DNA of 63,022 nt from a virus (lineage: Duplodnaviria > Caudoviricetes): IMG/VR virus record IMGVR_UViG_3300037504_000243, positions 1-63,022 of that record; one strand, given 5' to 3'. A program made the position numbers and the translations under genes. Of this stretch, positions 9,520 through 31,713 are shown piece by piece (positions within the stretch are counted from its first letter, which is position 1; every line of letters begins with the position of its first letter). Under the pieces are notes generated by a model. It was not told where the DNA came from. It saw only the letters and a program-made list of their open reading frames with translations, and searched no databases.

Positions 9520-9987
9520 ATGGCGACTTATGGAGTGACTAAAACGGCTGACACTGCAGCAATTAGTCAGTTGGTAGCCTCTGAAAACTGTCAGATGAAA
9601 CAGGTTACCATGAAGGGAAGCTGCGGTGATCTGGACAGAGGGACGGTTCTCGAGTTAGCTAGCGAGAGCACCGGCCTTTGGCAGCAACTTACAGCCGGCA
9701 CGTCCGTTGAGACACTGGCTATCCTGGCTAAGGATGTAGACGACCAGACAGCAACCCAGCTAGCTTGGGTTTACATTACTGGTAAATACCGTGAGACAGA
9801 CTTGATCTGGCCTGCGAGTATCACCACGCTGCAGAAGTACGCGGCTATTTACAAAATGCAACGGGCCGGGATATTGATTGACGAGGCGGTATTGAGTGTC
9901 TCGACCACAACCACGACCACGACTAGTACTACGACCAGCACTACTAGTTCAACCACTACCACCACGTCCACGACTACGGCTCCGTAG
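9520..9987 (+). CDS. Head decoration protein (lambda gpD-like) with Thr/Ser tail ending TTTAP
   Basis: Between scaffold and capsid; GTVL, AILAKDVD, VYITGKY...LIWP pattern; 26-residue S/T tract. Confidence 0.78.
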   Translation: MATYGVTKTADTAAISQLVASENCQMKQVTMKGSCGDLDRGTVLELASESTGLWQQLTAGTSVETLAILAKDVDDQTATQLAWVYITGKYRETDLIWPASITTLQKYAAIYKMQRAGILIDEAVLSVSTTTTTTTSTTTSTTSSTTTTTSTTTAP

Positions 9988-10018
9988 TAGTTGGTAGATA
10001 ACCGAGAGGAGATTAGTT

Positions 10019-11020
10019 ATGGACAATCTTTTTAAAAGTAGAGTATTAACGGCCGCAATCAACGAAATGTTTTCGCCCTCCATGATGATTTACCGTACCT
10101 TGTTTGCTGGTAAAGAACACATGGAGGCGACTGACCGCCTGGCCTTTGACGTTATCACCGGAAGCGAGGACGTGCTAGGTGAGATTGCGGTGGAGGCCCC
10201 GGCTACTGTAACCGATCACAATAGCCGTAAGACTGTGACCGTGACCGCGCCTAGGTTGGCTCAGAAGCGCTTCATCTCTAGTGCTAGTCTCAATGCGCTG
10301 AGGGGGTACGGGGAACCGGTAGCTACTGCCCAGATGCAGCAAACCGTTGCCCGCGAACTGCAGGACATGAGGCTCAAACATGATCGCACCTTGGAGATGT
10401 GGGCGGCGGACGCGATGAAGGGTCAGATCTACGACAATGATCGGTCCACTGTGTTGGTGGACTACAACATGTCAGATAGTCACAAACCTACTCTGTCTGG
10501 TACCGAGTTGTGGACCAACGCGTCTAGCGACCCGATCGAGAACCTCCGAACTTGGAAGCGTATGATTGAGGATGACAGCGGCACCGGTATTGACTCGTTC
10601 CTTGCTTTTGTCGGGTTCAATGCTATGACTGCACTACTCGATCATGACAACATCAGAGACTATTTCAAGTACACTGAGGGTAGCCGGATTGCCCAGATGG
10701 GCCGGATCAGCAACGTTGCTGAGGTGGACATGAAAGAGTATAACGGGAGTTACAAAGACAAGAATAGTACCAGGCGTCGGTTTATCCCGGAGGACTACAT
10801 TATGTTGGTCGGGGTAACCCCGGACATAACTGATATGCCGTACGCGCCGGTTGTGGACGACGACGCGCCCGGCGGGGTTGGTAACTCCGGTGCGGGCCGG
10901 GTCTTTTTCAGCAAGTCCTGGAAAGAGAAGGACCCGAGTGGGCGATGGATCAAAACCGAATCTCGACCTTTACCGGTGCTGCAACGTCCTGGCTGCGTTG
11001 TCTACGCTAAAGTGGTCTAG
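10019..11020 (+). CDS. Major capsid protein, lambda gpE-like
   Basis: LTAAIN, RTLEMWAADAMKG, W....SDPI..L..W, FSKSW...DPSG...ESRPLP. Confidence 0.9.
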   Translation: MDNLFKSRVLTAAINEMFSPSMMIYRTLFAGKEHMEATDRLAFDVITGSEDVLGEIAVEAPATVTDHNSRKTVTVTAPRLAQKRFISSASLNALRGYGEPVATAQMQQTVARELQDMRLKHDRTLEMWAADAMKGQIYDNDRSTVLVDYNMSDSHKPTLSGTELWTNASSDPIENLRTWKRMIEDDSGTGIDSFLAFVGFNAMTALLDHDNIRDYFKYTEGSRIAQMGRISNVAEVDMKEYNGSYKDKNSTRRRFIPEDYIMLVGVTPDITDMPYAPVVDDDAPGGVGNSGAGRVFFSKSWKEKDPSGRWIKTESRPLPVLQRPGCVVYAKVV

Positions 11021-11090
11021 TAGTACTAGGCAGGTGCAAGATGTTGCACTGGGTCATTGGTATTAATAGCTATAGATAAGGAGCGCACCT

Positions 11091-11516
11091 ATGGCTTACT
11101 GTAGTTACTCGGATGTGTTAGACGTTATACCAGAGTCCAAGTTGATCGAGCTAACAGACGACGCTGGCTCTGGTAGCGTCGACACGGATATTGTCAACGC
11201 GGCCATATCCAAAGCGGCGGATTTAATTGATGGGTATCTTGGCCAGATTGTCACTCTCCCTCTAACTACTACTCCTGCACCGCTCAAGGGTTTAAACGAG
11301 GACCTAGCCGTATGTGAATTGTGGCATAGATATCATGCTAGTATGCCTAAGCAATGGGAAAGCCGATGCGAGAGAGCACACGGTATGTTGTTAGATTTGG
11401 CTGCTGGAAAAATCAGCCTATACCCCAACCCGGAAGCGGACGGTGAAGGTCCTGGTTCTTTCCAGACTGAGACCAGGGATAAGCAGTTTACTGTAAAAGA
11501 GTTGACTAAGTTTTAA
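11091..11516 (+). CDS. Head-tail adaptor, Mu gp36/DUF1320-like
   Basis: MAYCS..D, LIELTD, AADLIDGYL, LPL...P, L..LAAGKISL. Confidence 0.88.
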   Translation: MAYCSYSDVLDVIPESKLIELTDDAGSGSVDTDIVNAAISKAADLIDGYLGQIVTLPLTTTPAPLKGLNEDLAVCELWHRYHASMPKQWESRCERAHGMLLDLAAGKISLYPNPEADGEGPGSFQTETRDKQFTVKELTKF

Positions 11517-11529
11517 CAGGTGGTGAGAC

Positions 11530-12006
11530 GTGAGTGATAAGCATCCATTCGAGCTGATAGAGGACGGAGTACTAGACGTATTAGCACCTTTAACTGATGA
11601 AGGGGTGAGGAGCCTAGAGCAGTATGCTGGACAACTAACCCCGGATGTTGGTGAGATACGGATACAATACCCTTTTGTCCTAGTCGCAGTTTGGTCAATG
11701 GATGCTGAGATACGAAACGAGTTGCGAATTGAGCAGTACGATGTGTTTCTGTATGTGGGGTCTCGTCACCAACAGTCTATAAAAAAAGCTACCAGAGGTA
11801 GCCAGGCCCAACCTATGGGAATATGGGATTTGCTCAGGAGGATTAGACAGTTGATGGACTACCAGACCGTGATTAAGGGGAAGGGGTTTACTCCGGCCCA
11901 ACTAGTAGCAGAGAACGGGGTGGTGGTTGACCCGGACCAGTCGCTAGTTATATATGAGGCCCAATACAGGCTTTGGTATAAAGTAGCTAGGTCGGGGTCT
12001 AGATAA
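11530..12006 (+). CDS. Tail terminator, Mu gp37-like
   Basis: IED..L..L, YAGQL, PFVLV pattern; synteny. Confidence 0.7.
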   Translation: MSDKHPFELIEDGVLDVLAPLTDEGVRSLEQYAGQLTPDVGEIRIQYPFVLVAVWSMDAEIRNELRIEQYDVFLYVGSRHQQSIKKATRGSQAQPMGIWDLLRRIRQLMDYQTVIKGKGFTPAQLVAENGVVVDPDQSLVIYEAQYRLWYKVARSGSR

Positions 12007-12045
12007 CGATAACGTTACCGTTACCGATAGATAGGAGTTTATCAT

Positions 12046-12624
12046 ATGCACTCAACCGAATTAATCAGGCGAGGTCGAGGTAAGGTTGCAATTGCTTTAC
12101 GGACAGGGGACGTGATAGGGACATACAAATACACCGGTATTTGTTCTGACTTCACGGTTGAACCGTCGATTGAAACGCAAGAGCATTTTGACCGCACTAA
12201 GCACAACACGCCTAGGACCAAGATTGTGGTTACGTCTAGCTCTCTCACTATATCGTTCAGTCATGATGAAGTATGGGTTGAAAACCTCGAAAGGTTTTTG
12301 ATGGGTAGTATGACAGGAGACGACGTCATCAATATTCTACAAGGTACAAGTAAGAGGTACGCCGTAGAGTTTAAAGAGACTCCAGAAGAGGGGACGACTG
12401 AGTATGATATTTGGTTGTTTCCCAAGGTCCAACTGTTACCCGGCGGTGCACACAGTTTGATCGCCGACGATTTCAGAACTATCCCTATGACCGGGGAGGT
12501 TGAAGAAGATGAAACCAATTACCCTGATTCGCCGTACGGTACCGTAACGAAAGTGCGGGGAGTGACGACCACGTCCAGTACAACCAGTACGACTACCACC
12601 ACGTCAACCACTACCGCACCGTAA
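12046..12624 (+). CDS. Major tail tube protein with Thr/Ser tail ending TTTAP
   Basis: GRGKV, ENLERFL.G, FPKVQL.P.G...LIADDF, PYG pattern; synteny; 17-residue S/T tract. Confidence 0.78.
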   Translation: MHSTELIRRGRGKVAIALRTGDVIGTYKYTGICSDFTVEPSIETQEHFDRTKHNTPRTKIVVTSSSLTISFSHDEVWVENLERFLMGSMTGDDVINILQGTSKRYAVEFKETPEEGTTEYDIWLFPKVQLLPGGAHSLIADDFRTIPMTGEVEEDETNYPDSPYGTVTKVRGVTTTSSTTSTTTTTSTTTAP

Positions 12625-12639
12625 ACCGGAGGGCGGGCA

Positions 12640-13845
12640 TTGTCCCGCCTTTCAATTTCTGTTATTGAGGTTTTTATGGCACAAAAATCAGTCCAGGAAA
12701 TTCTTAACAAGGTGTACCGGGACGAAAACGGGGATATCCGCGTAGTTCAAGGGACTGTACAAGAATTGTTGAATCTGGTTTATGATGTGGACAACGCAGC
12801 CTTGAGAGTTTCAAGCACGGGAGGTGGGACGACAGAAAATTTCGGTGTCGAACACAACGCTGACGGCACACATGCGGACGTTACGCTTAGTAATTCGACA
12901 GCCTTTACAAATGAGCACAACGCTAATGGTAGCCATAAAACCTTCGACCTCGATCTATCAGGTAACACAAATTTTACGGAGCAGCATACTGCCTCAGGAC
13001 TACACATTCTGAAAGGTTTTATTAGTGGGCTTGATTTGTCTGTCAAAGATGCTGATGAATTTTATATCGATGGCGGTGCTATCGATCTAAGCGGTGTGAT
13101 GTATAAAGTTTCTTCGCAGCTAACCAAGTCACTCTCGACGCCCTCAGCATCCACAGTATATCACGTATACATCAAACCGCCGGCTTCGGGGGATACGCTT
13201 TCAGCGTCTGAAATAGAATATAACACTACGGCCCCGACGTTAGATAGTGATAAAGGTGCAGGGTATCACGGGTCAAATACAACATGGCGATGGATCGGTT
13301 GGTTAGAAACGGACGGAAGCAGCAATATTGATAAAATAGAAAGCGTGCACGCTTTCAACGCTAAAACCGTGGGAGATCTTGAATACTACTTAGTGGCCGA
13401 GTCTGCACCGTACGGACGGGTAGAGCTTGACGGGTCGGCTATCAGCCGCACTACTTATGCCGATCTTTATCAATATGGGATTAAAAGCTTTGGAGTCGCA
13501 TTCGGAGACGGCGACGGCTCGACCACGTTCGACTTGCCCGACCTACGCGGCCGCTTTTTCAGAGTCTGGGACCACGGCGCCGGGATCGACCCGGACGCGG
13601 CCAGCCGCACCGATAGAGGTGATACAACTACAGGTGATAATGTAGGAACTAAGCAAGCGGATGATTTCGCGTCCCATAATCATGACCTCAAGTGGACTTC
13701 CGATCGCTATAGTTTGGGGAGTGCGTCTGGTGTCGGTAGCACCAGCTCAACGCTTGGTTCATTGATCATTGATACCGGCGGCAACGAAACCCGGCCGAAA
13801 AATATCAATATCGCGGTATACGCCAAATATATCGGGAGGCTTTAG
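12640..13845 (+). CDS. Fibre protein with tail collar domain (probable start 12676)
   Basis: LDGSAISRTTYADLY, GDGSTTFDLPDLRGRF, ETRPKNI; GAGG SD before ATG 12676. Confidence 0.85.
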   Translation: MSRLSISVIEVFMAQKSVQEILNKVYRDENGDIRVVQGTVQELLNLVYDVDNAALRVSSTGGGTTENFGVEHNADGTHADVTLSNSTAFTNEHNANGSHKTFDLDLSGNTNFTEQHTASGLHILKGFISGLDLSVKDADEFYIDGGAIDLSGVMYKVSSQLTKSLSTPSASTVYHVYIKPPASGDTLSASEIEYNTTAPTLDSDKGAGYHGSNTTWRWIGWLETDGSSNIDKIESVHAFNAKTVGDLEYYLVAESAPYGRVELDGSAISRTTYADLYQYGIKSFGVAFGDGDGSTTFDLPDLRGRFFRVWDHGAGIDPDAASRTDRGDTTTGDNVGTKQADDFASHNHDLKWTSDRYSLGSASGVGSTSSTLGSLIIDTGGNETRPKNINIAVYAKYIGRL

Positions 13846-13847
13846 GT

Positions 13848-14417
13848 ATGCAGATTTATCATTATAACCCGGAAACCGGCGAACCAACCGGTCAAAGACA
13901 GGCGAAGCTGGACCCGGCCGAAGCCGCTTTGGGCAATACTCGCTATCTGATCCCCAAAAACGCGACCGACCAGGCCCCGCCCAAGGCTGGTGCAAACGAG
14001 GCGGCCGTCTGGAACGGCCAGGCCTGGGAACTTGTCGCCGACTATCGCGGGACCACACACTACGACCCGGCCACGGGCGAAGAAATGACTATCGCCACAC
14101 TGGGAGAATCCCCGGACGTAACAGACCCGCCCCCGACCGAGCTATATCAACCGACGCGGAACGGGGCCGCCTGGGTTGAAACTCTGACCGAGGCCGAAAT
14201 CGCACAGCGAGAACTGTCGAAAACAGACATGGATTTAACTAGGGTGGTAGAAGAAGTATTTGAGTTGTTGTTTCAAGATCAGATCATTAAAAAAAGTGCG
14301 CTATCAGCAAGCACAAGAAGTTTGCTCAAGAAAAGAACAGCCTTAAGAAAAAAGCTTGAACCTACAGCAAAAGTCAGTTTTTTAAGTCGACTAAACCCGT
14401 TTAAACGAAGAGCGTGA
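13848..14417 (+). CDS. Tail fibre assembly protein (Tfa-like)
   Basis: IYHYNPETGE, LIPKNAT...PP, W.LV.DYRG motifs. Confidence 0.8.
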   Translation: MQIYHYNPETGEPTGQRQAKLDPAEAALGNTRYLIPKNATDQAPPKAGANEAAVWNGQAWELVADYRGTTHYDPATGEEMTIATLGESPDVTDPPPTELYQPTRNGAAWVETLTEAEIAQRELSKTDMDLTRVVEEVFELLFQDQIIKKSALSASTRSLLKKRTALRKKLEPTAKVSFLSRLNPFKRRA

Positions 14418-14438
14418 TTGAATACTGGAGGTGATTAA

Positions 14439-15680: not shown

Positions 15681-15704
15681 TCGATAACTAGAGGAGATAT
15701 CAAC

Positions 15705-15986
15705 ATGGCATTACAAAAAACACTTGAATATGACACCGGGGTAAGCGGTGATTATTGGCAGCTTTATCAAGTCAGGTTTGATCGGGCCGGGATGCAAATG
15801 TCGATTGAGTTTCGGCATTTTCTCAGTGCCACGGCCGCCACTGAAGGCAAGCAGCCAATTGGGTCTATGACTATCTGGACCACATTTACCGCTCAAGAAA
15901 TCACGACCGTTGACGCGGTAACTCTGGCGTATCAAAAAGCCAAAGCCGCCGAGGATTCATTTTTCGCCGACGCGGTAGACGTGTAG
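15705..15986 (+). CDS. Probable fibre chaperone
   Basis: Follows the fibre; MALQK...GV...YW, AY...K...F.DA.DV pattern; GAGGAG SD. Confidence 0.55.
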   Translation: MALQKTLEYDTGVSGDYWQLYQVRFDRAGMQMSIEFRHFLSATAATEGKQPIGSMTIWTTFTAQEITTVDAVTLAYQKAKAAEDSFFADAVDV

Positions 15987-15994
15987 ATCTAGAC

Positions 15995-16276
15995 GTGTGT
16001 GAATATAGTCGAGAGACCAGAGAACTGCGAGCAGAACTAGATTCTGTTTCGTCCACTGTCCAAGAATTGAACCAACAACTAGAGCGGACTGAGCAAGACC
16101 TAGCCTCACTATTACAAGCTCTAGATCTCCCAGTAGTCAGGTTGATAGACGACCTGGTCAAATTGTTAGTCGACAAACACGTAATTACTGAAGGTGAGAT
16201 TGACAAGACAGCATTAAAGAGGTTGAAAACAAGGGCGGTAGTAAGAGAGTTGTTAAAACAAGTGAGGGGTGGTTGA
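15995..16276 (+). CDS. Coiled-coil protein resembling the C-terminus of the Tfa-like protein
   Basis: D..VVRLIDDLVKLLVDKHVI versus D.DLTRVVEEVFELLFQDQII. Confidence 0.55.
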   Translation: MCEYSRETRELRAELDSVSSTVQELNQQLERTEQDLASLLQALDLPVVRLIDDLVKLLVDKHVITEGEIDKTALKRLKTRAVVRELLKQVRGG

Positions 16277-16670: not shown

Positions 16671-16699
16671 CAACACTAGTAATACTAACGAGGTGACGT

Positions 16700-17206: not shown

Positions 17207-17410
17207 CTTAAACCCACCATTAGCCAAGGCGATACAGGCGTGTCGGTGGTGTGGCTGCAGCATTATTTAGGTGTCAACGTTACAGGTGTATTTGACGATA
17301 ACACTGTTAACGCGGTTCAGGACTACCAGACCTCAAACGGTTTGTTGATTGACGGTATAGTGGGTCCTCAAACTTGGGGTCATATTTTTAACAACCACCT
17401 GTCAAGGTGA
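17207..17410 (+). pseudogene. Peptidoglycan-binding domain in frame after the endolysin TAA
   Basis: Reads LKPTISQGDTGVSVVWLQHYLG...TVNAVQDYQTSNGLLIDGIVGPQTW, a PG_binding_1 pattern; no SD seen. Confidence 0.8.
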
Positions 17411-17428
17411 GAGAGGAGGTACTATACA

Positions 17429-17632: not shown

Positions 17633-17642
17633 CCTAACTACT

Positions 17643-17675: not shown

Positions 17676-17705
17676 TAACCACCCTGATAACAACGAGGTG
17701 TTGAT

Positions 17706-18645: not shown

Positions 18646-19022
18646 TATGTCTAGATGAGTTGGATAATGAGAGGGACGAGAGGTACCTTGATATGGCCCA
18701 GGCTGTAAGCCTAGGGGCATGGGGGGATAAGAAAGCCTGGAAGAATGTCGAGAACCAGATAAAAAGTATTAAGAAGGCTAGAGACTTGAAGTGGAAAGAA
18801 CCGGTTATGCCTAGTGAGAGCAGTAGTGACGGTGGTAGTAATGCTGACAGTAGCGGCACTAACCGAGGGAGTGATAAAAAGACGACCAAAGCACCGCCTC
18901 ATGTTATACGCAAACAAGGGTTTGGATATAACGAGGTAAGGGTGAAGATAAGACGCGGCAAGATGGATGAGGTACCAGGGCGGGTAGAGCCGCTAGGTGG
19001 TCCACCGGATAAACAGGAGTAA
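18582..19022 (+). CDS. Tail assembly chaperone -1 frame extension (gpGT-like)
   Basis: -1 frame open from T TTT TTC (18498-18504) to 19022. Confidence 0.6.
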   Translation: MAEVCGRHGSGALNYGFEFFLICLDELDNERDERYLDMAQAVSLGAWGDKKAWKNVENQIKSIKKARDLKWKEPVMPSESSSDGGSNADSSGTNRGSDKKTTKAPPHVIRKQGFGYNEVRVKIRRGKMDEVPGRVEPLGGPPDKQE

Positions 19023-21534
19023 TGTTGTGGCTGGTAATGCACAGGTTGACGATGTTGTTATAAATTTTACCACCCAAACAAAAGGGGTGAAAGCAGCGCT
19101 ACAGCGAGTAGCGAGAAACATCAAGAAAGTGGGGGATGCTAGTAAGAAGGTTACTAGAGATGTTGACTCCCTAAACGATTTTATTACAGGTCTATCTGGC
19201 CGGTTACAAAGTTATTACTCCGTAGCACAGATCGCAGTCGGTGCCCTTCAAAAAGCGGTAGGTGGCCTAGCGTCTGAGTTTGTCAACGTCGCGGATCAAC
19301 AAGACCGGTTTGTTAATAAGCTGAATGCGTTGACTGACGGTAAAGGTGTTGAGACGTTTGAACGGTTGAATGACTGGGCGCTGGAAATGCCGGTCAATAC
19401 AGCCGAAGCAATCAACGCCTTTACCACTATGAAAGCTTACGGCCTAGACCCCACCCTCGAACAAATGGAAAGCCTGGTTGATGTTAGTGCGGTTTTCGGG
19501 GAGGAGGCTATACCTAGTGTGGCAAGGGCGCTTGGTCAAATGGCGTCGCTTGGGAAGGTGAGTGCCGAGGAGATTAATCAATTAGCTGAGGTAGGTATTA
19601 ACGCTCGAAAAATACTGAGTGATGCCTTTGGCATGACAGTCGAGGAGATACAAAAAAGCAACATCGCTATTGACGAAGTTATACAAGCTATCTGGAATGG
19701 GCTTAAGAGAGATTTTGGAGGTGCGGCTAAAGGTGCAATGGACCAGTGGGGGTCGTTGATAGCCGTGGGCGTTTCGTATTGGAAGGAGTTCGTTAGACTA
19801 GTGGCCAATACGGGCTTATGGGATATGATAAAAGAAAGATTCCGTAGTTTCATCGATTCCATAAGCGAGTTTGTTTCGGGCGGCGGTGCGGCTAAATACG
19901 CTAGAGCTATAGGTGGAGAGCTCATGCGTATAGTCGATATTATCAATATTACGATAGCGGGTATTACGGGTAAAGACGGGATAGCGGGAGCGCTTGATTT
20001 AGTACTAGTTGGAGTAAAAGCCTTGGCCGCTCCGGTAGCGGCGGTGGGTAGATTCTTTTTGAGATGGAAGGTTATTTGGGCGGCGCTGAAGGTTGCGTGG
20101 GGTGAGGTGACCACGTTCATTGCAGATAAGTTGTCATCCGTTGCAGGCTTCTTTTCCGATCTCTCGGAGAGTGTTGGGCTAGAGGGGACTAGTGAAAAGT
20201 TTGACAAGGTGTCTGAGAGCTTGTCAAAGTGGGCGGAGGAGCAAGAGAAAATTAACCCCAGTCGTATGGCTGAGTACGATCACGCTATCGAACAAATAGT
20301 GGCCCTAGAAAATAAGATGACTGAGACGATTGATACTAGAGGTAAGCTTGTTAAAGCTCAAGAGGAAGAGCGGCAGGTAGCGGAAGAGCTAGCCAAAGCT
20401 CTCGAAAAACAAGAAGCGGCACAACAAAAACTAAACCAGACACAGTCAGGGGACCAGTATATAAAAAACGCGGAGGCAGCGAAACAGGCACAAGCTGAAG
20501 TGGTTGACTTACAGGAGAAACACAATAAAGCACTTGCAGAGGTTAAGAAATCAAGAGGTGTGCAAGGTGTAGGTGAGGATCTAGTTAAGGAGGCAGCAAC
20601 CTTTAAGGCCGCTTTGAATATTGAAGAAGAGGCTTACAAAAATCTGGTCGCGGTGCAGCAAGACAAGGCTGCGACCGATGAACAGCTGGCCACTGCCCAG
20701 TTAAAGTTTCAGAAAGCACAAGAGCAAACAGTAGCACTAAGAGAGAAACAGTTTGCACAACAGGTGAAGGAGTCAGAGGCGGCAAAGAAAGAGGCACAAG
20801 CTAAAGCTAAGGCGGCAGAGGCTACACGTAAACAGGCGGAAACTAGTGGTAAAGCCGCTACTAAACAAAGCGAGTTTGGCAACGCCGCCATCCAAGCAGC
20901 TGACAGCGTTGACAACCTCAGTAAGGTGTTAGGTGGTCAAACTGGAGTAGCGCAACAATTATCAGGGGTGATTGAGAGTCTAGTGGTTAAGTACCGAGAC
21001 CTAGCTACAGCGGCTAAGGAGGCGGCGGCAAACGGTATTAGTGGAGGTGGGGGTGATAGCGCTACTGTCAGCGTTCAAGGCAAGGCAAGAGGAGGGATTC
21101 TCAGCATGGCCGAGGGCGGCGCGCTCCCTGGCAGTAGCCCCACCCCCACCTCCGACAACTTGTTGTTTGCTGGTACCGCTGGTGAATATGTACACCCAGT
21201 ATCGTCTGTTAAGTACTACGGCGAACAGTTCATGGACGCGGTGAGAAAAAAGCTGATACCTAGACCTAAAGGGTATGCTTTCGGCGGGTTAATGAGAGCA
21301 CAACGCGGGACTGGTAAAGAGGTTATGTGGTCTGCATTACAAGGCGACCTCAGAAAAAACTGGGGTGGTTGGGGTGCAATGCAGGACTTTGGCCGGGTGG
21401 ATATTAATATGGGTGGTCAGGAAATACCGGTGTGGACTACTAGTGACTATAGCGAGTTACTGAAACAGGCAGTGAAGGACGGTCAGAGTCGAGGAAATAA
21501 ATGGTTTGGCATGTTACCGGACGCGGCTGGGTAA
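18997..21534 (+). CDS. Tape measure protein (probable start GTG 19027)
   Basis: ARALGQMASLGKVSAEEINQLAE tape-measure domain; Ala-rich coiled coil. Confidence 0.92.
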   Translation: MVHRINRSNVVAGNAQVDDVVINFTTQTKGVKAALQRVARNIKKVGDASKKVTRDVDSLNDFITGLSGRLQSYYSVAQIAVGALQKAVGGLASEFVNVADQQDRFVNKLNALTDGKGVETFERLNDWALEMPVNTAEAINAFTTMKAYGLDPTLEQMESLVDVSAVFGEEAIPSVARALGQMASLGKVSAEEINQLAEVGINARKILSDAFGMTVEEIQKSNIAIDEVIQAIWNGLKRDFGGAAKGAMDQWGSLIAVGVSYWKEFVRLVANTGLWDMIKERFRSFIDSISEFVSGGGAAKYARAIGGELMRIVDIINITIAGITGKDGIAGALDLVLVGVKALAAPVAAVGRFFLRWKVIWAALKVAWGEVTTFIADKLSSVAGFFSDLSESVGLEGTSEKFDKVSESLSKWAEEQEKINPSRMAEYDHAIEQIVALENKMTETIDTRGKLVKAQEEERQVAEELAKALEKQEAAQQKLNQTQSGDQYIKNAEAAKQAQAEVVDLQEKHNKALAEVKKSRGVQGVGEDLVKEAATFKAALNIEEEAYKNLVAVQQDKAATDEQLATAQLKFQKAQEQTVALREKQFAQQVKESEAAKKEAQAKAKAAEATRKQAETSGKAATKQSEFGNAAIQAADSVDNLSKVLGGQTGVAQQLSGVIESLVVKYRDLATAAKEAAANGISGGGGDSATVSVQGKARGGILSMAEGGALPGSSPTPTSDNLLFAGTAGEYVHPVSSVKYYGEQFMDAVRKKLIPRPKGYAFGGLMRAQRGTGKEVMWSALQGDLRKNWGGWGAMQDFGRVDINMGGQEIPVWTTSDYSELLKQAVKDGQSRGNKWFGMLPDAAG

Positions 21535-21546: not shown

Positions 21547-22041
21547 ATGTCAGTAGTACTAGGTGGGGTTACGTTAGCCGGGTTGGTGTGGTGGGACGAG
21601 TTTAAACCCCACGTTGATACCCGGATACAACCGTCGTTAGGTGGTGGAATCAATATATGGGAGCAAGTGTTACAAAGTAGGCCTATCGATCTGGTTGGCG
21701 GTGGCGATTATGGTTGGCAGAGTAAGTCGACGCTACAGAGTTTATACACTCTAGCTACATCACTTAACACAACGTATGAGTTGAACTATGAAGGGACTAA
21801 GTACCAGGTTAGGTTCAGGCACGAGGACGGAGCTATATCTGCTGAACCTGTAGTGCCGCGACCTAATACAGGGAACACTGACGATTATAGGAACGTTGTG
21901 GTTAGGTTGATGATTATTAGTACTACGGGGACAACCACCACAACCACGACCAGCACTAGTACCACGTCAACGACGACGTCCAGTACAACATCGACCAGCA
22001 CTAGTACCAGCACTAGTACTACAACAACGACCGCACCTTAA
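21547..22041 (+). CDS. Distal tail-like protein with 38-residue Thr/Ser tail ending TTTAP
   Basis: First gene after TMP; W.DE, SLGG, RPIDL, VRFRHE pattern. Confidence 0.72.
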   Translation: MSVVLGGVTLAGLVWWDEFKPHVDTRIQPSLGGGINIWEQVLQSRPIDLVGGGDYGWQSKSTLQSLYTLATSLNTTYELNYEGTKYQVRFRHEDGAISAEPVVPRPNTGNTDDYRNVVVRLMIISTTGTTTTTTTSTSTTSTTTSSTTSTSTSTSTSTTTTTAP

Positions 22042-24129: not shown

Positions 24130-24157
24130 CGTTGCAATGACAGGGTTAGGTTGACCT

Positions 24158-26863
24158 ATGGCTAATGATTTCTCAGGTGACAGTAATTGTGTAGCACTTT
24201 ACAGGTTTGAGAGTGGAGCGTTATTAACCGATAGTCAAGGGTCAAATGATCTATCAAACTCAGGTACTACTCTCTATGCTGATACTGGAAACTACAAAGA
24301 GGGCAGTGCAAGCGGTGACTTTAGCGGCTGTGAGTGTCAGGTTTCGGACGCATTTTTATCTTCAGACTTTCCGATGAAATCAGGAGGTAGTGAACGATCT
24401 TTCACTATTTGTGCTTGGTTCAACCACGACGCTATAGGTGAAGGGACTATCGTTGACTACCTGATACAAAAAACCAACTCGATATCCGCAAACCTACATA
24501 CTAACGCGGGGAGTCCACCACCTTTCACTTTCTATTTCTACCTTTCCGGCGGCGGCAACCAGAGTGTAGCACTAGGTGATTTCACTACTGGTCAGTGGTA
24601 CCACATCGCTGTTACTTACGATAGCTCAGATTATAGTTATAGGATTAGAGTTTACGACGATAACGCAGGGACACAGAAGTTCACTGACAAAACCGGGACC
24701 CTGTCGAGCGCGTTAGCCATTGACTCCACACCGTGGTATATCGGGGCTGGGTCCGCAGCTTACGGCGCGTGGCAAGGGTTGATAGATGAGGTTGTAGTAT
24801 TCAATAGTGTTTTGTCAGCCGATGATATAGACCTTATCAGAGACGGTAGCTATCCCCCTACCTATGACTATGTCCTGTTTGCCGACCACTTAGCGGTCAG
24901 TGGTATGTCAAATCCACCATTGTCGACTAATAGCAAGTTCTTCGCCGACCACTTAGCCGTCCCCAATCTAGCACTCCCACACCTAAACAATCCCTTACAC
25001 TTTTTCGGTGACCATCTAGCCGCGTCAAAAACATACGCCGGGGAAATGATCCAACCTATCCACGTTGACAACCAGACAGTATCGCAACTCTCCAACCCTG
25101 CACTCTACACTAACACACAGTTTTTTGCTGACCATCTAGCGACAAGTTTACTACCGAGTGCGTTGGCTAGCACTGTCTGGTCAGTAGGAGTGCAGAGGTT
25201 GTTAAATCAATTAGGCGACCAAGGGGAGCAGCTAGTAACTGGGGACTTAGGGGTACAGGAGGTCCAACGCTATTTACTGTCACTAGGTATACATGCTCAA
25301 TCAATCCAGCGTGTCCTAGCCACTATTATCGAAGACACCGCACAGTCAATACAACGAGTCCTAGCTACAATCGAGGACACCAATGTGGTCCAGTCTATTC
25401 AGCGCCACTTGCTAACCATACTACCTACCGAGGTTGTATACCGTGAGGTAGAGTATGATATATATCTAGACGGGGTGTCAGTTAAGGATTATTTGACAGG
25501 GGCAGTGGTGGAGTACGACGAGGACTCGATACATAACAAAGTTACCCTGAATGTCAACCCATTAAAATCCGAATACTCACCTCGACACAATATGTGGGAT
25601 AGTGCGGACCCGGACGTGAACAGTGGGGAGTCTAGGATAGAGATACATGTTGGCTCCCGTGTGCTGTATTTTCTAGTCGAGAAAAGGCAAGGGAGCGAGA
25701 GAGGGTTTACTATTGTTGGTCGTAGTCTTACCGCACAAGACGATCAACCGTATAGTGAGTACCAGACCACCACTATCAATACCCCTGAAACAGCGTCGTC
25801 TCTAGCCGGCACCTTGGCCACAAGTCGAGCAGTGGACTGGCAAGCTAACGATTGGGTACTACCTGTTGATACGTTCGAGGCTGAGGGATACCCGGCTAGG
25901 ATTATTAGAGAGATAGCCGAACAAGTCGGGGCCGTGGTCAGGTCCGATGACGCGGGAGATTTTGTAGTTAGGCAAGCGTTACCAGTAAGGCCGATTGACA
26001 TGCAAGGGACTACGGCGGAAGTGAGTTATGATCGAGAAGTGACTCTACTTGAACTCAGCGTCCAAGAGGCTAGAGGGACAGGTCACAACAAGATTACAGT
26101 TGACGGGTATAGTCCAGACGTTGATCTGCCTAAGATCGAGACAGAGGCTGACCCGGACGGGGCGAGAATAGAGGGGGATACAACTTATGTGCGAGTGTAC
26201 TGGTACGACGCAATCCCGTCTAGCGCCCCTAGTAAATATACAACGGATGGGTATTCACAGTACTTGGGTCAGTATACCGAGACGGTTAAAGAGGTGGTGG
26301 AGTTTAGGGACGGGGTGGCTAATCTCTCGTACCCACTGACCTCTCTGATCTACTGCTCATGGATTGGTGATACTAGCACTCTCAATAGTGCTGAAAAGTA
26401 CCAGGGGGAGTTGACGTTAGATGTTGATGACGACGCGTCAATGAGTGATAGGTATCGGGTGGCCGAGGTGAAATATACTACCACGTATTGGAGGTATAAA
26501 CTTTACGGCCATGATGTTGAAAGGCTACTGTTAGTGTTGGACTTAGGGGGTGGTGAGGACGTTACCGTGGATGTGACTATGGGTGACGGGGATAGCGAGG
26601 CCGACAGCGTAGGCGCAGACTGGTTGACCAACGAGTCTGTAGCGGTAGTGAGGGGTAAGTATGAACTAGACCGGACCAGGTATGACAGAAAGGTTATGAC
26701 ACTTAGAGTGCCGTATAACGACGCGGCCAAAGACGGGGTGGTTGTTTCGGTAGATAATGGTGAGCTTAGTGTGAATGGTAGGTGCCATGTGACTAGGTCG
26801 AGGATTATATTTGACGGCCCTATGGTTTTGAATGAACTGGAAGTGGTCAGGTTTTTAGTATAG
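24158..26863 (+). CDS. Tail protein: N-terminal LamG/ConA-like domain, internal repeats, hub-like C-terminus
   Basis: FTICAWF, GQWYHIAVTYD, GLIDEVVVFNSVLS; FADHLA and QSIQR repeats. Confidence 0.75.
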   Translation: MANDFSGDSNCVALYRFESGALLTDSQGSNDLSNSGTTLYADTGNYKEGSASGDFSGCECQVSDAFLSSDFPMKSGGSERSFTICAWFNHDAIGEGTIVDYLIQKTNSISANLHTNAGSPPPFTFYFYLSGGGNQSVALGDFTTGQWYHIAVTYDSSDYSYRIRVYDDNAGTQKFTDKTGTLSSALAIDSTPWYIGAGSAAYGAWQGLIDEVVVFNSVLSADDIDLIRDGSYPPTYDYVLFADHLAVSGMSNPPLSTNSKFFADHLAVPNLALPHLNNPLHFFGDHLAASKTYAGEMIQPIHVDNQTVSQLSNPALYTNTQFFADHLATSLLPSALASTVWSVGVQRLLNQLGDQGEQLVTGDLGVQEVQRYLLSLGIHAQSIQRVLATIIEDTAQSIQRVLATIEDTNVVQSIQRHLLTILPTEVVYREVEYDIYLDGVSVKDYLTGAVVEYDEDSIHNKVTLNVNPLKSEYSPRHNMWDSADPDVNSGESRIEIHVGSRVLYFLVEKRQGSERGFTIVGRSLTAQDDQPYSEYQTTTINTPETASSLAGTLATSRAVDWQANDWVLPVDTFEAEGYPARIIREIAEQVGAVVRSDDAGDFVVRQALPVRPIDMQGTTAEVSYDREVTLLELSVQEARGTGHNKITVDGYSPDVDLPKIETEADPDGARIEGDTTYVRVYWYDAIPSSAPSKYTTDGYSQYLGQYTETVKEVVEFRDGVANLSYPLTSLIYCSWIGDTSTLNSAEKYQGELTLDVDDDASMSDRYRVAEVKYTTTYWRYKLYGHDVERLLLVLDLGGGEDVTVDVTMGDGDSEADSVGADWLTNESVAVVRGKYELDRTRYDRKVMTLRVPYNDAAKDGVVVSVDNGELSVNGRCHVTRSRIIFDGPMVLNELEVVRFLV

Positions 26864-26894
26864 GTTAGGTATAGGTATAGATCATGTTTGGTAG

Positions 26895-27116
26895 GTGGTT
26901 ATGGCTGACATTATGAGTGGGGTTGTGACTAGAGCACTGTCAGGCGGTAGGTATAAAGTCCGTTCGCGTGGTAAGGTTTATACTGTTAAAGGACAAGGGC
27001 ACAGCCTCAATGTTGGTTCGTCCTGTATCGTTAACCGGTCAGGTAATGGCTGGGTAGTGGTAGGGTCGGGCAAAACTAAACGGCGGAGTACCACCACGGT
27101 AACAGTTACAGGTTAG
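26895..27116 (+). CDS. Small basic beta-rich tail protein
   Basis: ORF in the tail operon. Confidence 0.55.
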   Translation: MVMADIMSGVVTRALSGGRYKVRSRGKVYTVKGQGHSLNVGSSCIVNRSGNGWVVVGSGKTKRRSTTTVTVTG

Positions 27117-27125
27117 GTTAGGTTA

Positions 27126-27896
27126 ATGAGCGAGCAAGTACAAAGTATTAGTTTCTCAGGTGCGGGAAGTAACACTGCTATCAAGGCGGAACTCGACAGT
27201 GTATTCAACGACTCAGCCTCCCAGTTTGCCTACAAGGAGTCGGCTTATTTCCGTGTCTACCCCTACCCCGACAACCTCGCTATCACTATCACCCCCTCTG
27301 CCGGTGAGGTTTACGGGGCCGGGGATGGGAGTTACACTGTCACAGAGACAGTTACATTCGACGACACCAACCTAGCCGCAACCACATATCCGATACAGAG
27401 TATTGTCAGTACGTCGTGGTACGGCAACGACCTAGGCGGGGTTGTCAGTAAGGGTAACACCACTATTCAATCCTCCAAGTCTGGGATAGGGGTGTTGTCC
27501 ATCACATACACCTCATACTTTAAACGCTTCCGAGTTAGATTAGATACGCAAAGTGAATCAACCTTCCCAGTACTGTTGTCGATACAAGGCGGGACTGACA
27601 GTGACGATGACAGACCTAGTACCTCCCTCACTGTCACGTTTTACCAAACCTCAACAACAACCACGGACTATTTGTTTACCGTGCAAAACTACTGTACTGA
27701 CACCGCTATCAGCGGGGTGGGTGTTTACATTGACGGGGTTAAGGTTGGTACCACTGACAGCAACGGCCAGGTAACCTTGAGTGACGCCGTGGTTGGTGAA
27801 AGCTATACCGCGTATGTGAGTGAGGGCGGGTATAGAGTTTTTGAGGCAACGTTTACGGTGCCCACCCCCTCAACCGACGATAGCGAGGCGTGTTAG
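27126..27896 (+). CDS. Tail protein with C-terminal Ig/PEGA-like domain
   Basis: ISGVGVYIDG...GTTDSNGQVTL. Confidence 0.6.
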   Translation: MSEQVQSISFSGAGSNTAIKAELDSVFNDSASQFAYKESAYFRVYPYPDNLAITITPSAGEVYGAGDGSYTVTETVTFDDTNLAATTYPIQSIVSTSWYGNDLGGVVSKGNTTIQSSKSGIGVLSITYTSYFKRFRVRLDTQSESTFPVLLSIQGGTDSDDDRPSTSLTVTFYQTSTTTTDYLFTVQNYCTDTAISGVGVYIDGVKVGTTDSNGQVTLSDAVVGESYTAYVSEGGYRVFEATFTVPTPSTDDSEAC

Positions 27897-30552
27897 TATG
27901 GCGACTGTAGAAGGAACTATATATCTATGTCCTCGGTCGTGCTCTCAACTGGTCGACTCCACACCAACAAGTGAGAGGGATAGTGTTACTATTACCGCAC
28001 CTGAGGACGGGGTGGAGTATGGAACCGCTATCATCGTCCTCAAACCGTATGCCGTCACCAACCTCACCCCCTATTCAGCCGGCACAATAAAACTACGGAC
28101 CATTACCGGACCGACCTGTGGTGATATATTAAGTTGGCAACGCACAGACAGAGGTATTGTCACTGTCACCTACGCGGCCCCGGATGACTGTAACTGGGAG
28201 TACTCGGAGCTAGGACCACGTAAACCACCTAACTTGACTATCGGCGCTGGTTGGCCTTTGTGGTCATGGTTACTTGAACCAGAACAAGCGGTAGTGCAAC
28301 CGGCCAACGACGACACCAAGGCCGACGCCTACACGTTACTAGGAGATAGTAACACCACTAACCTCACTGTACTATCCATGGTACCAGGGACCTACGTTGC
28401 CGCGTACGAGTACCACCTTAACCTCGCGGGTAACCGTATCGGGACCTTGATACTTAGCGAGTGGGGGACGCCTAATGTAACAGGCGGGTATATCACTAAC
28501 ATTGGCGGGGTCAATGACCTTGACCTGACCGTTACCGTGTTCGGTGAGAGTGTTAACGCTAAAGCCTCTGACCATAGAAGCTGGTCGGTTGACGACTGGG
28601 TAGTGCTAGTACAAAACTGCTGCCAGGATAACAACGGCAACCTCCCTAATTGCTCACCTTACGTAGGCGGCGCACCCGCTGAGTTCCAAGAGTTTGGACC
28701 TGATAATATTCTGACCAACCCCGATAACGACTACATAACACTGCCAGTCGGGTATAGTCTATATGAGCCAGTGAGTGAGGCGATACATAGGTATAGTAGT
28801 ACCGAGTGGGCCGCGTCACTAGACCTGTCAGTTCATCGCGGTGAGGTGACAGCGGTAGACACTGGCAACGACACTTGTACGGTGGCTTTTGAAAATGACT
28901 TCGGGACCATCGCCGACATCCCGGTCAAATATATAGCGCAAGGAGAAAGCAGTTATACAGGCGGGGCCGGGTCGATAGGTGTTGGCGCTAACGTTCTAGT
29001 CCTTAACAAATCAGGTACTAGTACCCCTGTGGCCGGGGACCTGATTGTGTTCTCGGTATGCGATCGGTACGTGCTGTACTTCTATAACGAGGACTATTAT
29101 GATGTTGGTGATGGGTATAGTAAGTATTGTTTTTTCTGGGATAAGGGGACGGACAATTACCTCCAGGGTGTTACCTATAACAACGGGGACCCTGTGCTTG
29201 ACGCGGATTGGCCGGTGTTAGAAAGTGATATCAGTGATTGGATACTGGCCAACTTCCAGGAGTCGCAATACCCGGAGTATTTTTTTGAAGTAGTCAACCA
29301 GCAAGGTACTCATCATCTAAACGAATCGACAGACAGTGTTACCAACTATTGTATCCCAGACTTGGACAACCGATGCACGGAGGACGAATACATCACAAAC
29401 AATATCGGAACTGTTTTTGTCGACCAGTTTTTCACGCCTCATATAAACTACTTTGTTGGGGAAGACGAATACGACCCATACGACGTGTTTCCTTTTGATA
29501 TGACTGGGTACCGAAACGACACTGAGGTATCGGCTGAGGTGGCGGCAAGGATAGTGGTGGTGGAAGGGGAGTTTTATAAAAGTTCATTTATCCCAGAATA
29601 CCGCTACGACAGGTACGTCAACGATATCTACGCGGAGGTCTCAGATGCTACAGACCCCACAAAAACATACCGCGAATACGACGGACCCTACCAAACAGAA
29701 CTAAACCCCACCGCCCCACATGGCCACGACCAGACCCACGATTGGAAATTTCGAGCAGTCATTAAACAACGGCACGGAGATGATTATAGAACTGCCTGGA
29801 CTCACATCCAACTAAACCGCACTGGTACTTCCGACGGTATAGGTGAGATTAAAGGGGCTGGTGCCGGTAACCAAACCGCCGAGCTTGATATTGATATTAC
29901 CGGGACAATGTCGCTGACGATCCCAGGTCTCGGTATCGAGGAGAGCTTCGACTATCTGTGGAGTCAAACTAACTGCACATGGGATGACAGCGACAAAGAG
30001 AATCCAACTGGAGGGTCATACGGATATACAACGGGCGGGATTGGAACTGGTATGAGAAACGGGAAGTGGACAGACGAGGAAGTAGCGATAACCTACCTTG
30101 CCATATTCAAACACACTGAAACCGTCTATGGCACCTACACCAACACTAACGACACACCCGAGAATTTCGATGTTAATACTAACAACCTCGACATCTACGC
30201 GTGGCAAGCGGACGGGAGTGAATATGTAGGTGAAGAGGTGGAAGTGTATGATCGTTTTTTTGTAGCGGATAACAGGTCAAGTAACCTCGAAGCGGCAATC
30301 AAAAAGATGGTGTTGACGTACCAACAACCTGTATCGTTCGCCACCACAAACGCGGGAGGGATTGTTGAATATGACTATCTGGTTGACTCGGACCCAGTCC
30401 AAGGTATCCCAGGTAATCACTATGCTTGCGGTATCCACCTACCAGACAATCTCCCACATTGGGATTTTACAGTTAGCCAATCTGTCTGGGAGAAGTCCTG
30501 GATTTGGGGCGCAAGGATATACGTACCAGAATGTCTACTTGTAAAAATATAA
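27820..30552 (+). CDS. Large tail tip/receptor-binding protein (probable start 27898)
   Basis: 910-aa acidic, aromatic-rich ORF at the end of the tail operon. Confidence 0.6.
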   Translation: MRAGIEFLRQRLRCPPPQPTIARRVSMATVEGTIYLCPRSCSQLVDSTPTSERDSVTITAPEDGVEYGTAIIVLKPYAVTNLTPYSAGTIKLRTITGPTCGDILSWQRTDRGIVTVTYAAPDDCNWEYSELGPRKPPNLTIGAGWPLWSWLLEPEQAVVQPANDDTKADAYTLLGDSNTTNLTVLSMVPGTYVAAYEYHLNLAGNRIGTLILSEWGTPNVTGGYITNIGGVNDLDLTVTVFGESVNAKASDHRSWSVDDWVVLVQNCCQDNNGNLPNCSPYVGGAPAEFQEFGPDNILTNPDNDYITLPVGYSLYEPVSEAIHRYSSTEWAASLDLSVHRGEVTAVDTGNDTCTVAFENDFGTIADIPVKYIAQGESSYTGGAGSIGVGANVLVLNKSGTSTPVAGDLIVFSVCDRYVLYFYNEDYYDVGDGYSKYCFFWDKGTDNYLQGVTYNNGDPVLDADWPVLESDISDWILANFQESQYPEYFFEVVNQQGTHHLNESTDSVTNYCIPDLDNRCTEDEYITNNIGTVFVDQFFTPHINYFVGEDEYDPYDVFPFDMTGYRNDTEVSAEVAARIVVVEGEFYKSSFIPEYRYDRYVNDIYAEVSDATDPTKTYREYDGPYQTELNPTAPHGHDQTHDWKFRAVIKQRHGDDYRTAWTHIQLNRTGTSDGIGEIKGAGAGNQTAELDIDITGTMSLTIPGLGIEESFDYLWSQTNCTWDDSDKENPTGGSYGYTTGGIGTGMRNGKWTDEEVAITYLAIFKHTETVYGTYTNTNDTPENFDVNTNNLDIYAWQADGSEYVGEEVEVYDRFFVADNRSSNLEAAIKKMVLTYQQPVSFATTNAGGIVEYDYLVDSDPVQGIPGNHYACGIHLPDNLPHWDFTVSQSVWEKSWIWGARIYVPECLLVKI

Positions 30553-30591
30553 CCTAGTACAGTAATATCAATACTAGTAAGGAGAATAACC

Positions 30592-31713
30592 GTGGGCAGC
30601 TTATCAGACTATTTAGAGAACGCAATACTAAAACACCTGGTCGACGAAGAGTCATACACTCCACCGACCATCTACGTTGGGTTGTCAACAGCTGACCCGA
30701 CCGACGACGCTAGCGGACTAAGTGAACCGAGCGGTGACGGGTATGCCCGTGTCGCCCATAGTAGTTGGACCACCGCCGCTAGCCGAGGTACCGCCAACAA
30801 CGGTCAAATCACCTTCCCTACAGCTACCGGATCGTGGGGGACTGTCACCCACGTTGCGTTGTTTGACGCTTCAAGCGGTGGTAACATGTTGGCCCACTCA
30901 GCCCTTGACGCTTCAAGGTCTATCGTATCAGGTAATACTTTTGCTATAGCCGACGGTGAGATAACGATAGACTTCAAAGTCTGGAAGTTGTACTACACCA
31001 GCGGCGGGACGTATGAGATACAAGATGATGACACTATAGAAGGCGACACTGGAGGCGCCACTGCCACTGTTCATGACGTTATACTACAGTCTGGTACCTG
31101 GGCTGGAGGTGACGCGGCCGGGTATATCTGGATTAAATCTGTAACTGGTACTTTCCAAAGTGAGACTATTTCGGTAGGTGCTAACAGTAACGTTGCAACA
31201 ATAGACGGTGATTTGGTCGGTGGTATCTCTGACTACCTAGCTCACAAAATGTTAGACCTGATATTCTCCGGGACGGGATACACCGCGCCGTCAATATACG
31301 TGGGGTTTTCCACAGCCAACCCAGAGGACGACGGTGGTGGTACTAGTGAGCCTGTCGGTAACAACTACAGCCGAACTCAGGTCAGCTCGTGGCGGTCGGT
31401 TGCTAACAGTGTAGTTGACAACGCGGCGGAAGTGACGTTACCGACCCCGTCTGGTTCTTGGGGGACGTTGACTCATGAGATACTGATGGACGCGGCGACA
31501 AGCGGTAACCTTCTATACTATGGCAAGCTACGATACACACAAAGCCCCAACAACGGGGACGGGTTAACAATCCCTGTTGGGGCTTTGAACATTGGAGTGG
31601 ACAGGACGTTACCGGTTACTACGACCACGACGACTAGCACTAGCACTACCACGACGTCAACCACTAGTACCACGTCAACGTCAACCACAACCACAACGAC
31701 GACAGCACCTTAA
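30592..31713 (+). CDS. Virion protein with duplicated SDYL...IYVG.STA.P domain and Thr/Ser tail ending TTTAP
   Basis: Two copies of a phage structural domain around a central beta domain; 29-residue S/T tract. Confidence 0.72.
   Translation: MGSLSDYLENAILKHLVDEESYTPPTIYVGLSTADPTDDASGLSEPSGDGYARVAHSSWTTAASRGTANNGQITFPTATGSWGTVTHVALFDASSGGNMLAHSALDASRSIVSGNTFAIADGEITIDFKVWKLYYTSGGTYEIQDDDTIEGDTGGATATVHDVILQSGTWAGGDAAGYIWIKSVTGTFQSETISVGANSNVATIDGDLVGGISDYLAHKMLDLIFSGTGYTAPSIYVGFSTANPEDDGGGTSEPVGNNYSRTQVSSWRSVANSVVDNAAEVTLPTPSGSWGTLTHEILMDAATSGNLLYYGKLRYTQSPNNGDGLTIPVGALNIGVDRTLPVTTTTTTSTSTTTTSTTSTTSTSTTTTTTTAP

Follow-up and report, generated by a model that had tools for sequence, protein, structure and literature searches.

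Four proteins encoded by a single phage genome close with long runs of threonine and serine, and this raises the question of whether such runs are by-products of slippage at the DNA level or are held in place by selection on the protein and, if the latter, what for. The genome is a 63,022-base IMG/VR record (IMGVR_UViG_3300037504_000243; the whole of this stretch is called the window here) from a siphophage, and the four tails lie on its plus strand, at the ends of a head decoration protein, the tail-tube protein, a small protein encoded right after the tape measure gene and a fibre (Table 1). An earlier note on this DNA had proposed that the tails are selected at the protein level. Our analysis supports that proposal and points to a likely reason for the selection in a nearby glycosylation cassette: the tails are probably disordered C-terminal tags that accept O-linked glycans from the phage's own enzymes, a reading to which we give a probability of about 0.72.

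Selection on the four Ser/Thr tails

Translations and codon listings bore out every coordinate and count, with four plus-strand open reading frames (ORFs) closing in a Ser/Thr run, the dipeptide Ala-Pro (AP) and a stop codon. The AP-stop is spelled in three ways (GCT CCG TAG, GCA CCG TAA and GCA CCT TAA, the last one twice), and each tail uses all four ACN threonine codons together with serine codons of both the TCN and the AGY type. The 106 tail codons comprise 80 for threonine (11 ACA, 27 ACC, 25 ACG and 17 ACT) and 26 for serine, for which five of the six codon types are used. A six-frame scan of the window gave no other [ST] run longer than eight residues, and the other frames and opposite strand of the tails held nothing useful, being mostly stops or Val-, Arg- and Pro-rich nonsense. 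The major capsid protein has an untagged C-terminus (...CVVYAKVV), as had been noted, and a Ser/Thr end was absent from 17 of 17 other virion-module proteins checked, the capsid protein included. A chance origin of the tails is excluded, because only 1 of 80 control loci centred on relatives of the terminase (described below) has any C-terminal Ser/Thr tail of at least 10 residues.

The true microsatellites of the window are indeed perfect hexamers: Tandem Repeats Finder reports (ATACTG) x 21.2 arrays at both termini (positions 1-127 and 62896-63022), with a score of 254 for the (ATACTG)21 array. Scores inside the tails are 32-52 over 16-26 nt, and the tails lack the perfect or near-perfect short DNA tandem unit of a coding microsatellite. 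The statement that they have no fixed period holds in that they contain weak short repeats only, but not throughout, as the third tail includes a perfect 12-nt repeat in 2.2 copies (21994-22019).

Four lines of evidence support selection on the protein over neutral slippage. All 26 non-Thr residues among the tail codons are Ser, although Ser accounts for only 26% of the non-synonymous codons one base away from the Thr codons in use (P ~5e-16). Homologues of the decoration protein have kept a Ser/Thr tail of ~13 to 50 residues in 16 of 16 database matches, with cores 47-55% identical. Between two close relatives the tails differ by four substitutions, all four of them synonymous, and by one 6-nt in-frame indel. 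Finally, when synonymous codons were shuffled within each of 105 unique tailed proteins from related phages, 459 ± 17 of 3179 adjacent codon pairs were expected to be identical; 294 were observed, and none of 1000 shuffles gave a value as low. With the codons scrambled and Ser and Thr kept, the DNA stays non-repetitive while the peptide stays repetitive. The denial of slippage was too strict in one respect, however, as slippage-type events do occur: the 6-nt indel between the close relatives and the perfect 12-nt duplication in the third tail are two of them, and tail length is adjusted by slippage-like in-frame codon indels.

The glycosylation cassette and its association with poly-Thr tracts

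The last tagged gene is followed, after 469 bases and on the opposite strand, by a seven-gene cassette (32182-41754, minus strand) with five glycosyltransferase-type genes, a UDP (uridine diphosphate)-galactopyranose mutase gene (Glf) and a methyltransferase gene. First in its transcription order is GT457, a candidate for the enzyme that acts on the tails. GT457 has no Pfam family, and its AlphaFold model, built with 52 homologues in the alignment, shows a GT-B fold (predicted local distance difference test, pLDDT, 88.3; predicted template modelling score, pTM, 0.87). The top Foldseek rows are all retaining GT4 enzymes, led by MshA (3c48, E 3.2e-12) and followed by GlgM and BshA; at least 500 chains matched, and GtfA is absent among the matches listed. 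The stretch ...PTxxESFGLVxPEAA..., in which E336 and E344 are invariant in the 52 sequences and which corresponds to weak GlgA matches, we take to be the E-x7-E type motif of GT4-like enzymes. GT457 has both features of a retaining GT-B enzyme, the two-Rossmann-domain fold and the C-terminal E-x7-E motif. Among the other cassette products, the 257-aa (amino acid) protein gave nothing usable in a PDB sequence search, and Glf, the enzyme that supplies UDP-galactofuranose, scores 236.6 bits with TIGR00031, under the equivalog cut-off of 303.75. Among the cassette genes we saw neither a kinase nor a phosphotransferase.

A GT457 profile found relatives on at least 99 IMG/VR contigs, of which 80 were kept. 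Around each match we took up to 10 kb on either side (1.30 Mb in total), called ORFs of at least 60 aa and scored C-terminal Ser/Thr tails of at least 10 residues; the control was a set of 80 loci centred on terminase relatives (1.20 Mb). Tails were present in 50 of the 80 GT457 loci (70 tails) against 1 of the 80 control loci (Fisher P = 7e-19), the single control tail being that of a 65-aa reverse-strand ORF. The position of the tails relative to GT457 is equally regular, as 69 of the 70 lie on the same strand and 67 upstream of it, and in 19 of the 80 loci a tailed ORF ends no more than 300 nt from the GT457 start. Where no tail was nearby, runs of (ACN)6 occurred elsewhere in 19 of 30 GT457 records, including all seven that are at least 90% complete; among the 46 control records, which are the longer ones of the 80, one had such a run (0 of 12 at that completeness).

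The rest of the cassette accompanies GT457 in part. Downstream of GT457 in the 80 loci we found homologues of GT379 in 33, of the methyltransferase in 30, of the 257-aa protein in 32 and of GT2 in 36; GT314 homologues were present in 6 and Glf homologues in none. The conserved module is thus made up of four glycosyltransferase-type genes (GT457, GT379, the 257-aa protein and GT2) and the methyltransferase. On the acceptor side, 34 sequence families are represented among the cores of 102 tailed proteins, which indicates that the tag is portable. One GT457-bearing contig (locus L065, ~780-7650) codes for a very large protein whose mucin-like look comes from numerous poly-Thr/Ser stretches in its interior.

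The tagged proteins, their ends and the genome around them

The tagged head protein is a gpD-like decoration protein, as judged from its family matches (Table 1), from a match of the family profile to lambda gpD (PDB 1c5e, E 1.5e-3) and from the position of its gene directly upstream of the capsid gene. The tube protein has the siphophage tail-tube fold: residues 10-171 of its AlphaFold model (pLDDT 82.3) align with VIA-align to the tube chain of JBD30 (8rk3_q, Z 15.6, root mean square deviation 3.3, 162 residues aligned) and to that of YSD1 (6xgr_A, Z 15.3, root mean square deviation 2.5, 154 aligned). Beyond residue 171 the model has no predicted secondary structure, and the tail has a pLDDT of 63-68. 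The YSD1 tube protein has 381 residues, 275 of them in the compared chain, and its remaining C-terminal part is presumably an outer domain. In the alignment of the decoration core with lambda gpD the match runs to residue 102 of 110, near the C-terminus, and the gpD C-terminus is exposed and tolerates fusions. Given that the tube fold ends at residue 171 with an unstructured tail beyond it, and that the decoration core aligns to near the gpD C-terminus, we infer from these models that the tails would face outward on the particle.

The four proteins differ in how constant their tails are among homologues. For the decoration protein every match was tailed, as described above, and in related loci 17 of 18 tube homologues have a Thr-rich end (14 tails of at least 10 residues, two short T5 ends and one end with acidic/TTTT blocks; the eighteenth has none). 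The closest homologues of the other two are mostly untailed: three database homologues of the post-tape-measure protein (41-49% identical, 126 aa) all lack a tail, and among the matches listed for the Gp80 family, the window's own protein excluded, only 2 of 119 have one. On these comparisons the tags on the post-tape-measure protein and the Gp80-like fibre are recent additions. The idea that high-copy proteins are the tagged ones holds for decoration and tube proteins but describes only two of the four. Single-protein IMG/VR scans were insufficient for such comparisons, giving no relative for the tube core and one spurious 23-residue match for the post-tape-measure core, and alignments had to be used instead. 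For neither core was there a usable PDB sequence match, and an Atlas search with the post-tape-measure protein matched only unnamed phage clusters of ~125 aa. Database gene calls for 9520-9987 and 30592-31713 are shorter than ours (130 aa and 275 aa, with internal Met starts); homologue alignments support the longer forms of 155 aa and 373 aa.

The earlier note had named loss of the AP terminus in relatives as a ground for refutation, and the terminus is indeed not conserved there. Decoration homologues close with TA (the commonest), GG, SP, TS, AA, AG and others, and the 105 tails finish most often with A (29 tails), followed by T and P (18 each), S (16), V (9) and G (7), after a Thr run of median length 5. 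The ends are shared within a genome instead. Two tails of one genome have the same final dipeptide in 24 of 57 pairs, compared with 533 of 5403 pairs drawn from different genomes, and all ends agree in 10 of 28 multi-tail genomes (permutation mean 1.8, maximum 6 in 5000). Recent gene conversion was considered as the cause of the shared ends and rejected, since codon identity at same-residue tail sites is only 33-36% within a genome, compared with 25-26% between genomes. The sharing may stem from a common recognition partner, or from old intragenomic copying on which peptide-level selection then acted. In one provirus record (G014; locus L021, 9992-10489 and 12455-13069) the decoration and tube proteins end in blocks of 3-4 acidic residues and TTTT where other tails have plain poly-Thr; this record carries a GT457 homologue.

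Table 1. Tagged proteins, cassette genes and other features of the window (S/T, serine or threonine; SAM, S-adenosylmethionine; TM, template modelling score)
Feature	Position	Strand	Length	Match or content	Tag
Plus-strand arm	1-31.7 kb	+		terminase, Mu-type portal, MuF-like protein, protease, gpD-like decoration protein, E-like capsid protein, adaptors	
Plus-strand arm, rest	up to 31.7 kb	+		tube protein, fibres, amidase, tape measure, tail-tip genes	
Head decoration protein, lambda gpD-like (tail 1)	9520-9987	+	155 aa	PF02924 34.0 bits (cut-off 29.1); phrog_49 E 1.2e-12	9901-9987: 26 S/T (9901-9978) + AP + stop
Major capsid protein, lambda E-like	10019-11020	+		PF03864 E 3.2e-59	untagged
Major tail (tube) protein (tail 2)	12046-12624	+	192 aa	phrog_807 E 7.8e-18	12565-12624: 17 S/T (12565-12615) + AP + stop
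Tape measure gene	18997-21534				
Small protein right after tape measure gene, probably a tail-tip component (tail 3)	21547-22041	+	164 aa	phrog_4408 E 3.5e-21	21919-22041: STTG + 34 S/T (21931-22032) + AP + stop
Gp80-like fibre, two PF23140 repeats (tail 4)	30592-31713	+	373 aa	PF23140 E 2e-70 in two stretches	31618-31713: 29 S/T (31618-31704) + AP + stop
Minus-strand arm		-		glycosylation cassette, then nucleotide metabolism and replication genes	
GT2, family 2 (GT-A) glycosyltransferase	32182-33195	-	337 aa	PF00535 E 1.7e-11, 44.7 bits (cut-off 23.3)	
257-aa protein without Pfam family, probably GT-A (GT2-like) fold (lead only)	33248-34021	-	257 aa	Atlas structure search, TM 0.70-0.76 to GT2-named clusters	
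SAM-dependent methyltransferase	34032-34622	-	196 aa	PF13489 E 1.4e-7, 31.9 bits (cut-off 27)	
GT379, probable GT-B-type glycosyltransferase	34627-35766	-	379 aa	sub-cut-off PF13524 20.5 bits, PF13692 20.3 bits	
UDP-galactopyranose mutase (Glf)	36404-37570	-		PF03275 E 2e-49; TIGR00031 E 4.3e-70	
GT314, GT-B-type glycosyltransferase	38645-39589	-	314 aa	PF13524 E 6.1e-13, 49.4 bits (cut-off 25)	
GT457, soluble GT-B (GT4-like) glycosyltransferase, cassette marker	40381-41754	-	457 aa	phrog_2170 E 1.1e-7	
MazZ-type dATP/dGTP diphosphohydrolase domain	among 42652-44469 and 51793-54465 genes	-		PF18909	
DUF1937 / nucleoside deoxyribosyltransferase-like protein	among 42652-44469 and 51793-54465 genes	-			
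Family A DNA polymerase, N-terminal uracil-DNA-glycosylase-superfamily domain	among 42652-44469 and 51793-54465 genes	-			

Among 50,697 isolated phage records, megablast (positions 8000-32000) found no close relative of the window phage, and the 78 records matched there by the capsid protein are every one less than 60% identical. Relatives were found among environmental contigs. Those with 51-55% identical decoration proteins are binned with Desulfobacteraceae genomes, and a 71.6-kb contig (G018:C79) has a capsid protein 60% identical to that of the window, tails on its decoration, tube and post-tape-measure proteins and on a fourth protein, and homologues of four cassette genes, GT379, the 257-aa protein and GT2 among them. 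GT457 was detected in six of the 44 capsid-clade records, in all of which the decoration protein is tailed, and in none of the nine records with an untailed decoration protein, an absence that means little because all are fragments. Pfam scans of the relatives' records for GT2 and PF13524 were uninformative, as the records are fragmentary and GT457 has no Pfam family. The in-frame peptide VETG[FL]KPVST recurs within unrelated genes of two related contigs (L004 4997-6277 and 11733-14336; L003 6797-8092), namely MuF-like and tape measure genes, with the same reading in opposite-strand ORFs; this resembles the insertion of a small palindromic element of DNA into coding sequence.

The record has direct terminal repeats and an estimated completeness of 100. 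At both ends the direct terminal repeat consists entirely of the hexamer array; either the phage genome truly ends in such repeats, or the assembly was closed on a microsatellite. Between divergent genes, the intergenic stretch 55740-56150 has two arrays of iteron-like TTGTCAC tandem heptamers (~5-6 copies each) as well as an ACC-rich array, and is possibly an origin or regulatory region. Elsewhere on the minus strand, genes at 42652-44469 and 51793-54465 are suggestive of nucleotide-pool or DNA-base handling (Table 1); no PurZ-like gene was seen.

Readings of the tails and their meaning

Under the glycosylation reading, the soluble glycosyltransferases of the 32-42 kb region would act in the cytoplasm late in infection and build methylated oligosaccharides on the Ser and Thr hydroxyls of the tails. 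The builders would be GT457, two more GT-B-like and two GT-A-like enzymes, with Glf supplying UDP-galactofuranose and the methyltransferase tailoring the glycan; given that supply, the oligosaccharides would probably contain galactofuranose. Selection keeps the Ser/Thr composition, the closing Thr run and a short end shared across the genome (AP here); synonymous sites drift, identical neighbouring codons are disfavoured and length shifts by in-frame codon indels. Since the tags sit on decoration, tube, tail-tip and fibre proteins, head, tail and tip of the particle would all be covered by a mucin-like brush of glycans, for which shielding, prevention of adhesion or sticking, or attachment are possible roles. 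What the sequences show directly is the tails with their conservation and their signature of purifying selection, the folds and families of the enzymes, and the statistical association of GT457 with poly-Thr tracts; the attachment of sugars, the initiating enzyme, the nature of the glycan and the role of the coat are inferences from these.

Several observations weigh against this reading. It rests wholly on sequence and association, and the P values overstate the number of independent events, because the 80 GT457 loci are phylogenetically non-independent. Most relatives are fragments, 4-68% complete; among capsid-clade records at least 45% complete, GT457 is present in 4 of the 7 whose decoration protein is tailed and in 0 of the 4 in which it is untailed, which is only suggestive. 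For the window tails alone, avoidance of identical neighbouring codons has the same sign as in the larger set and is not significant (11 of 102 pairs against 14.3 ± 3.1, P = 0.19). In some GT457 phages the in-frame Thr tracts are internal, 119-1272 residues before the stop, from which it follows that GT457 accompanies poly-Thr tracts generally, C-terminal tails being the common form. Of the enzymes, GT379 falls below the Pfam cut-offs, and the GT-A-like assignment of the 257-aa protein comes from the Atlas structure lead alone. GT457 and GT2, the two cassette genes searched in this way, had no tblastn match (E <= 1e-3) in the 50,697 isolated phage records, mycobacteriophages included. Finally, there is no glycosyltransferase in the element G019:C94 (locus L035, 10488-11189), although its post-tape-measure protein ends in ~20 Thr; this is a defective or gene transfer agent-like prophage that lies between host genes in a Pseudomonadota genome bin.

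This last element would suit an unmodified tail, and the likeliest alternative, which we nevertheless consider improbable, is that the tails are hydrophilic, disordered bristles that serve as an entropic brush against aggregation or sticking, or as a weak adhesin, the cassette modifying the host surface or the phage DNA instead. The lack of secondary structure and low pLDDT of the tube tail agree with the disorder and exposure that such bristles require, and the untailed homologues of two of the four tagged proteins show that the tail is not needed for assembly. Bristles would, however, leave unexplained why tails travel with GT457 in the loci and (ACN)6 runs with it in the records, why a tailed gene so often directly precedes GT457, and why only hydroxyl residues are tolerated. 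Marginally less probable still is a different modification, either Ser/Thr phosphorylation, a phosphate-linked polymer or glycosylation by a host enzyme, which the cassette would at most extend or tailor. In its favour, the substrates of the GT4 enzymes that GT457 resembles include small molecules and lipids as well as proteins, and the G019:C94 tail has no phage glycosyltransferase near it; the composition of the conserved module, four glycosyltransferase-type genes with a methyltransferase, and the failure to find a kinase or phosphotransferase among the cassette genes argue against this alternative. Strongly disfavoured, and in our estimate very improbable, is the view of the tails as neutral coding microsatellites or contingency loci without a selected protein function, which would fit the in-frame length changes in a repeat context and the spread of tail lengths in the decoration family but not the scrambled codons with their Ser-only replacements, the depletion of identical neighbouring codons, the retention of the tail in homologues with cores diverged to ~50% identity or the perfect hexamers of the genome's true microsatellites.

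The glycosylation reading has partial precedents. To our knowledge, virion glycosylation by phage enzymes has so far been chemically shown only in a few mycobacteriophages, where it affects antibody recognition. A 2023 study by Freeman et al. in Cell Host Microbe (31:1216) reportedly described virion O-glycosylation of mycobacteriophages Che8, Corndog and Myrna. In Mycobacterium phages, according to a paper that cites that study, the C-termini of capsid and tail tube subunits carry glycans (PMC12619734). Phage-encoded glycosyltransferases are also described, with a methyltransferase noted in related actinobacteriophages (PMC12619734, PMC13313380). The window resembles that system in its phage-encoded glycosyltransferases (PF00535 and PF13524 above cut-off, and the GT-B fold of GT457), in C-terminal Ser/Thr on abundant head and tail-tube subunits, which are candidate acceptors here by sequence, and in a sugar coat on the assembled particle, which we propose from the genes. 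It differs in its long poly-Thr/Ser tails of 17-34 residues on four proteins, in that the tagged head protein is the decoration protein and not the major capsid protein, and in that the related contigs are binned with Desulfobacteraceae and not with actinobacteria. Homology to the characterised enzymes was not found for GT457 and GT2 in the tblastn search above, and the analogy with mycobacteriophages is therefore functional only. Searches of a limited literature library found no relevant paper on poly-Thr tails of phage proteins or on O-linked virion glycans.

Outside phages, dense O-glycosylation of the serine-rich repeat glycoproteins of Gram-positive cocci is started by a soluble cytoplasmic O-linked N-acetylglucosamine transferase of GT-B/GT4 type, GtfA/GtfB, and adjacent-encoded glycosyltransferases extend the glycan; the acceptors are bacterial adhesins with Ser-rich dipeptide repeats that are exported by accessory Sec. 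A soluble enzyme of GT-B/GT4 type, disordered Ser/Thr tracts and neighbouring glycosyltransferase genes are common to both systems, whereas exported acceptors with dipeptide repeats are particular to the cocci, and GtfA was not among the Foldseek matches listed for GT457. In eukaryotic mucin-type O-glycosylation, dense Thr/Ser tracts carry clustered O-glycans as an extended brush, initiated in the Golgi by GT-A enzymes of family GT27, whereas the marker enzyme here is GT-B and would work in the bacterial cytoplasm. The tagged positions have precedents of their own, as display at the C-terminus of gpD and immunoglobulin (Ig)-like domains on siphophage tube proteins are exposed additions at those same C-termini; there the additions are folded domains or engineered fusions, and here they are low-complexity tags.

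More broadly, we suggest, as a tentative extension that we hold with less than even confidence, that uncultured phages on at least 99 contigs form a large and so far undescribed group that builds a mucin-like glycan coat on tags of 34 or more unrelated virion protein families; in this group GT457 would read poly-Thr, the shared end would serve as a recognition tag, the tag would be gained and lost repeatedly, and the DNA would be kept non-repetitive, stabilising the tract. If the tails are indeed glycosylated, the glycosylated-virion trait would be widespread in environmental phages, would rely on enzymes of another family and on an acceptor tag that is simple and portable, and would be readable directly from sequence, providing a genomic marker for sugar-coated phages. 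For glyco-engineering of phage particles, the tails would then offer a natural peptide tag and the cassette the enzymes to go with it, and the tails would be a clean example of selection stabilising a low-complexity coding tract by codon scrambling.

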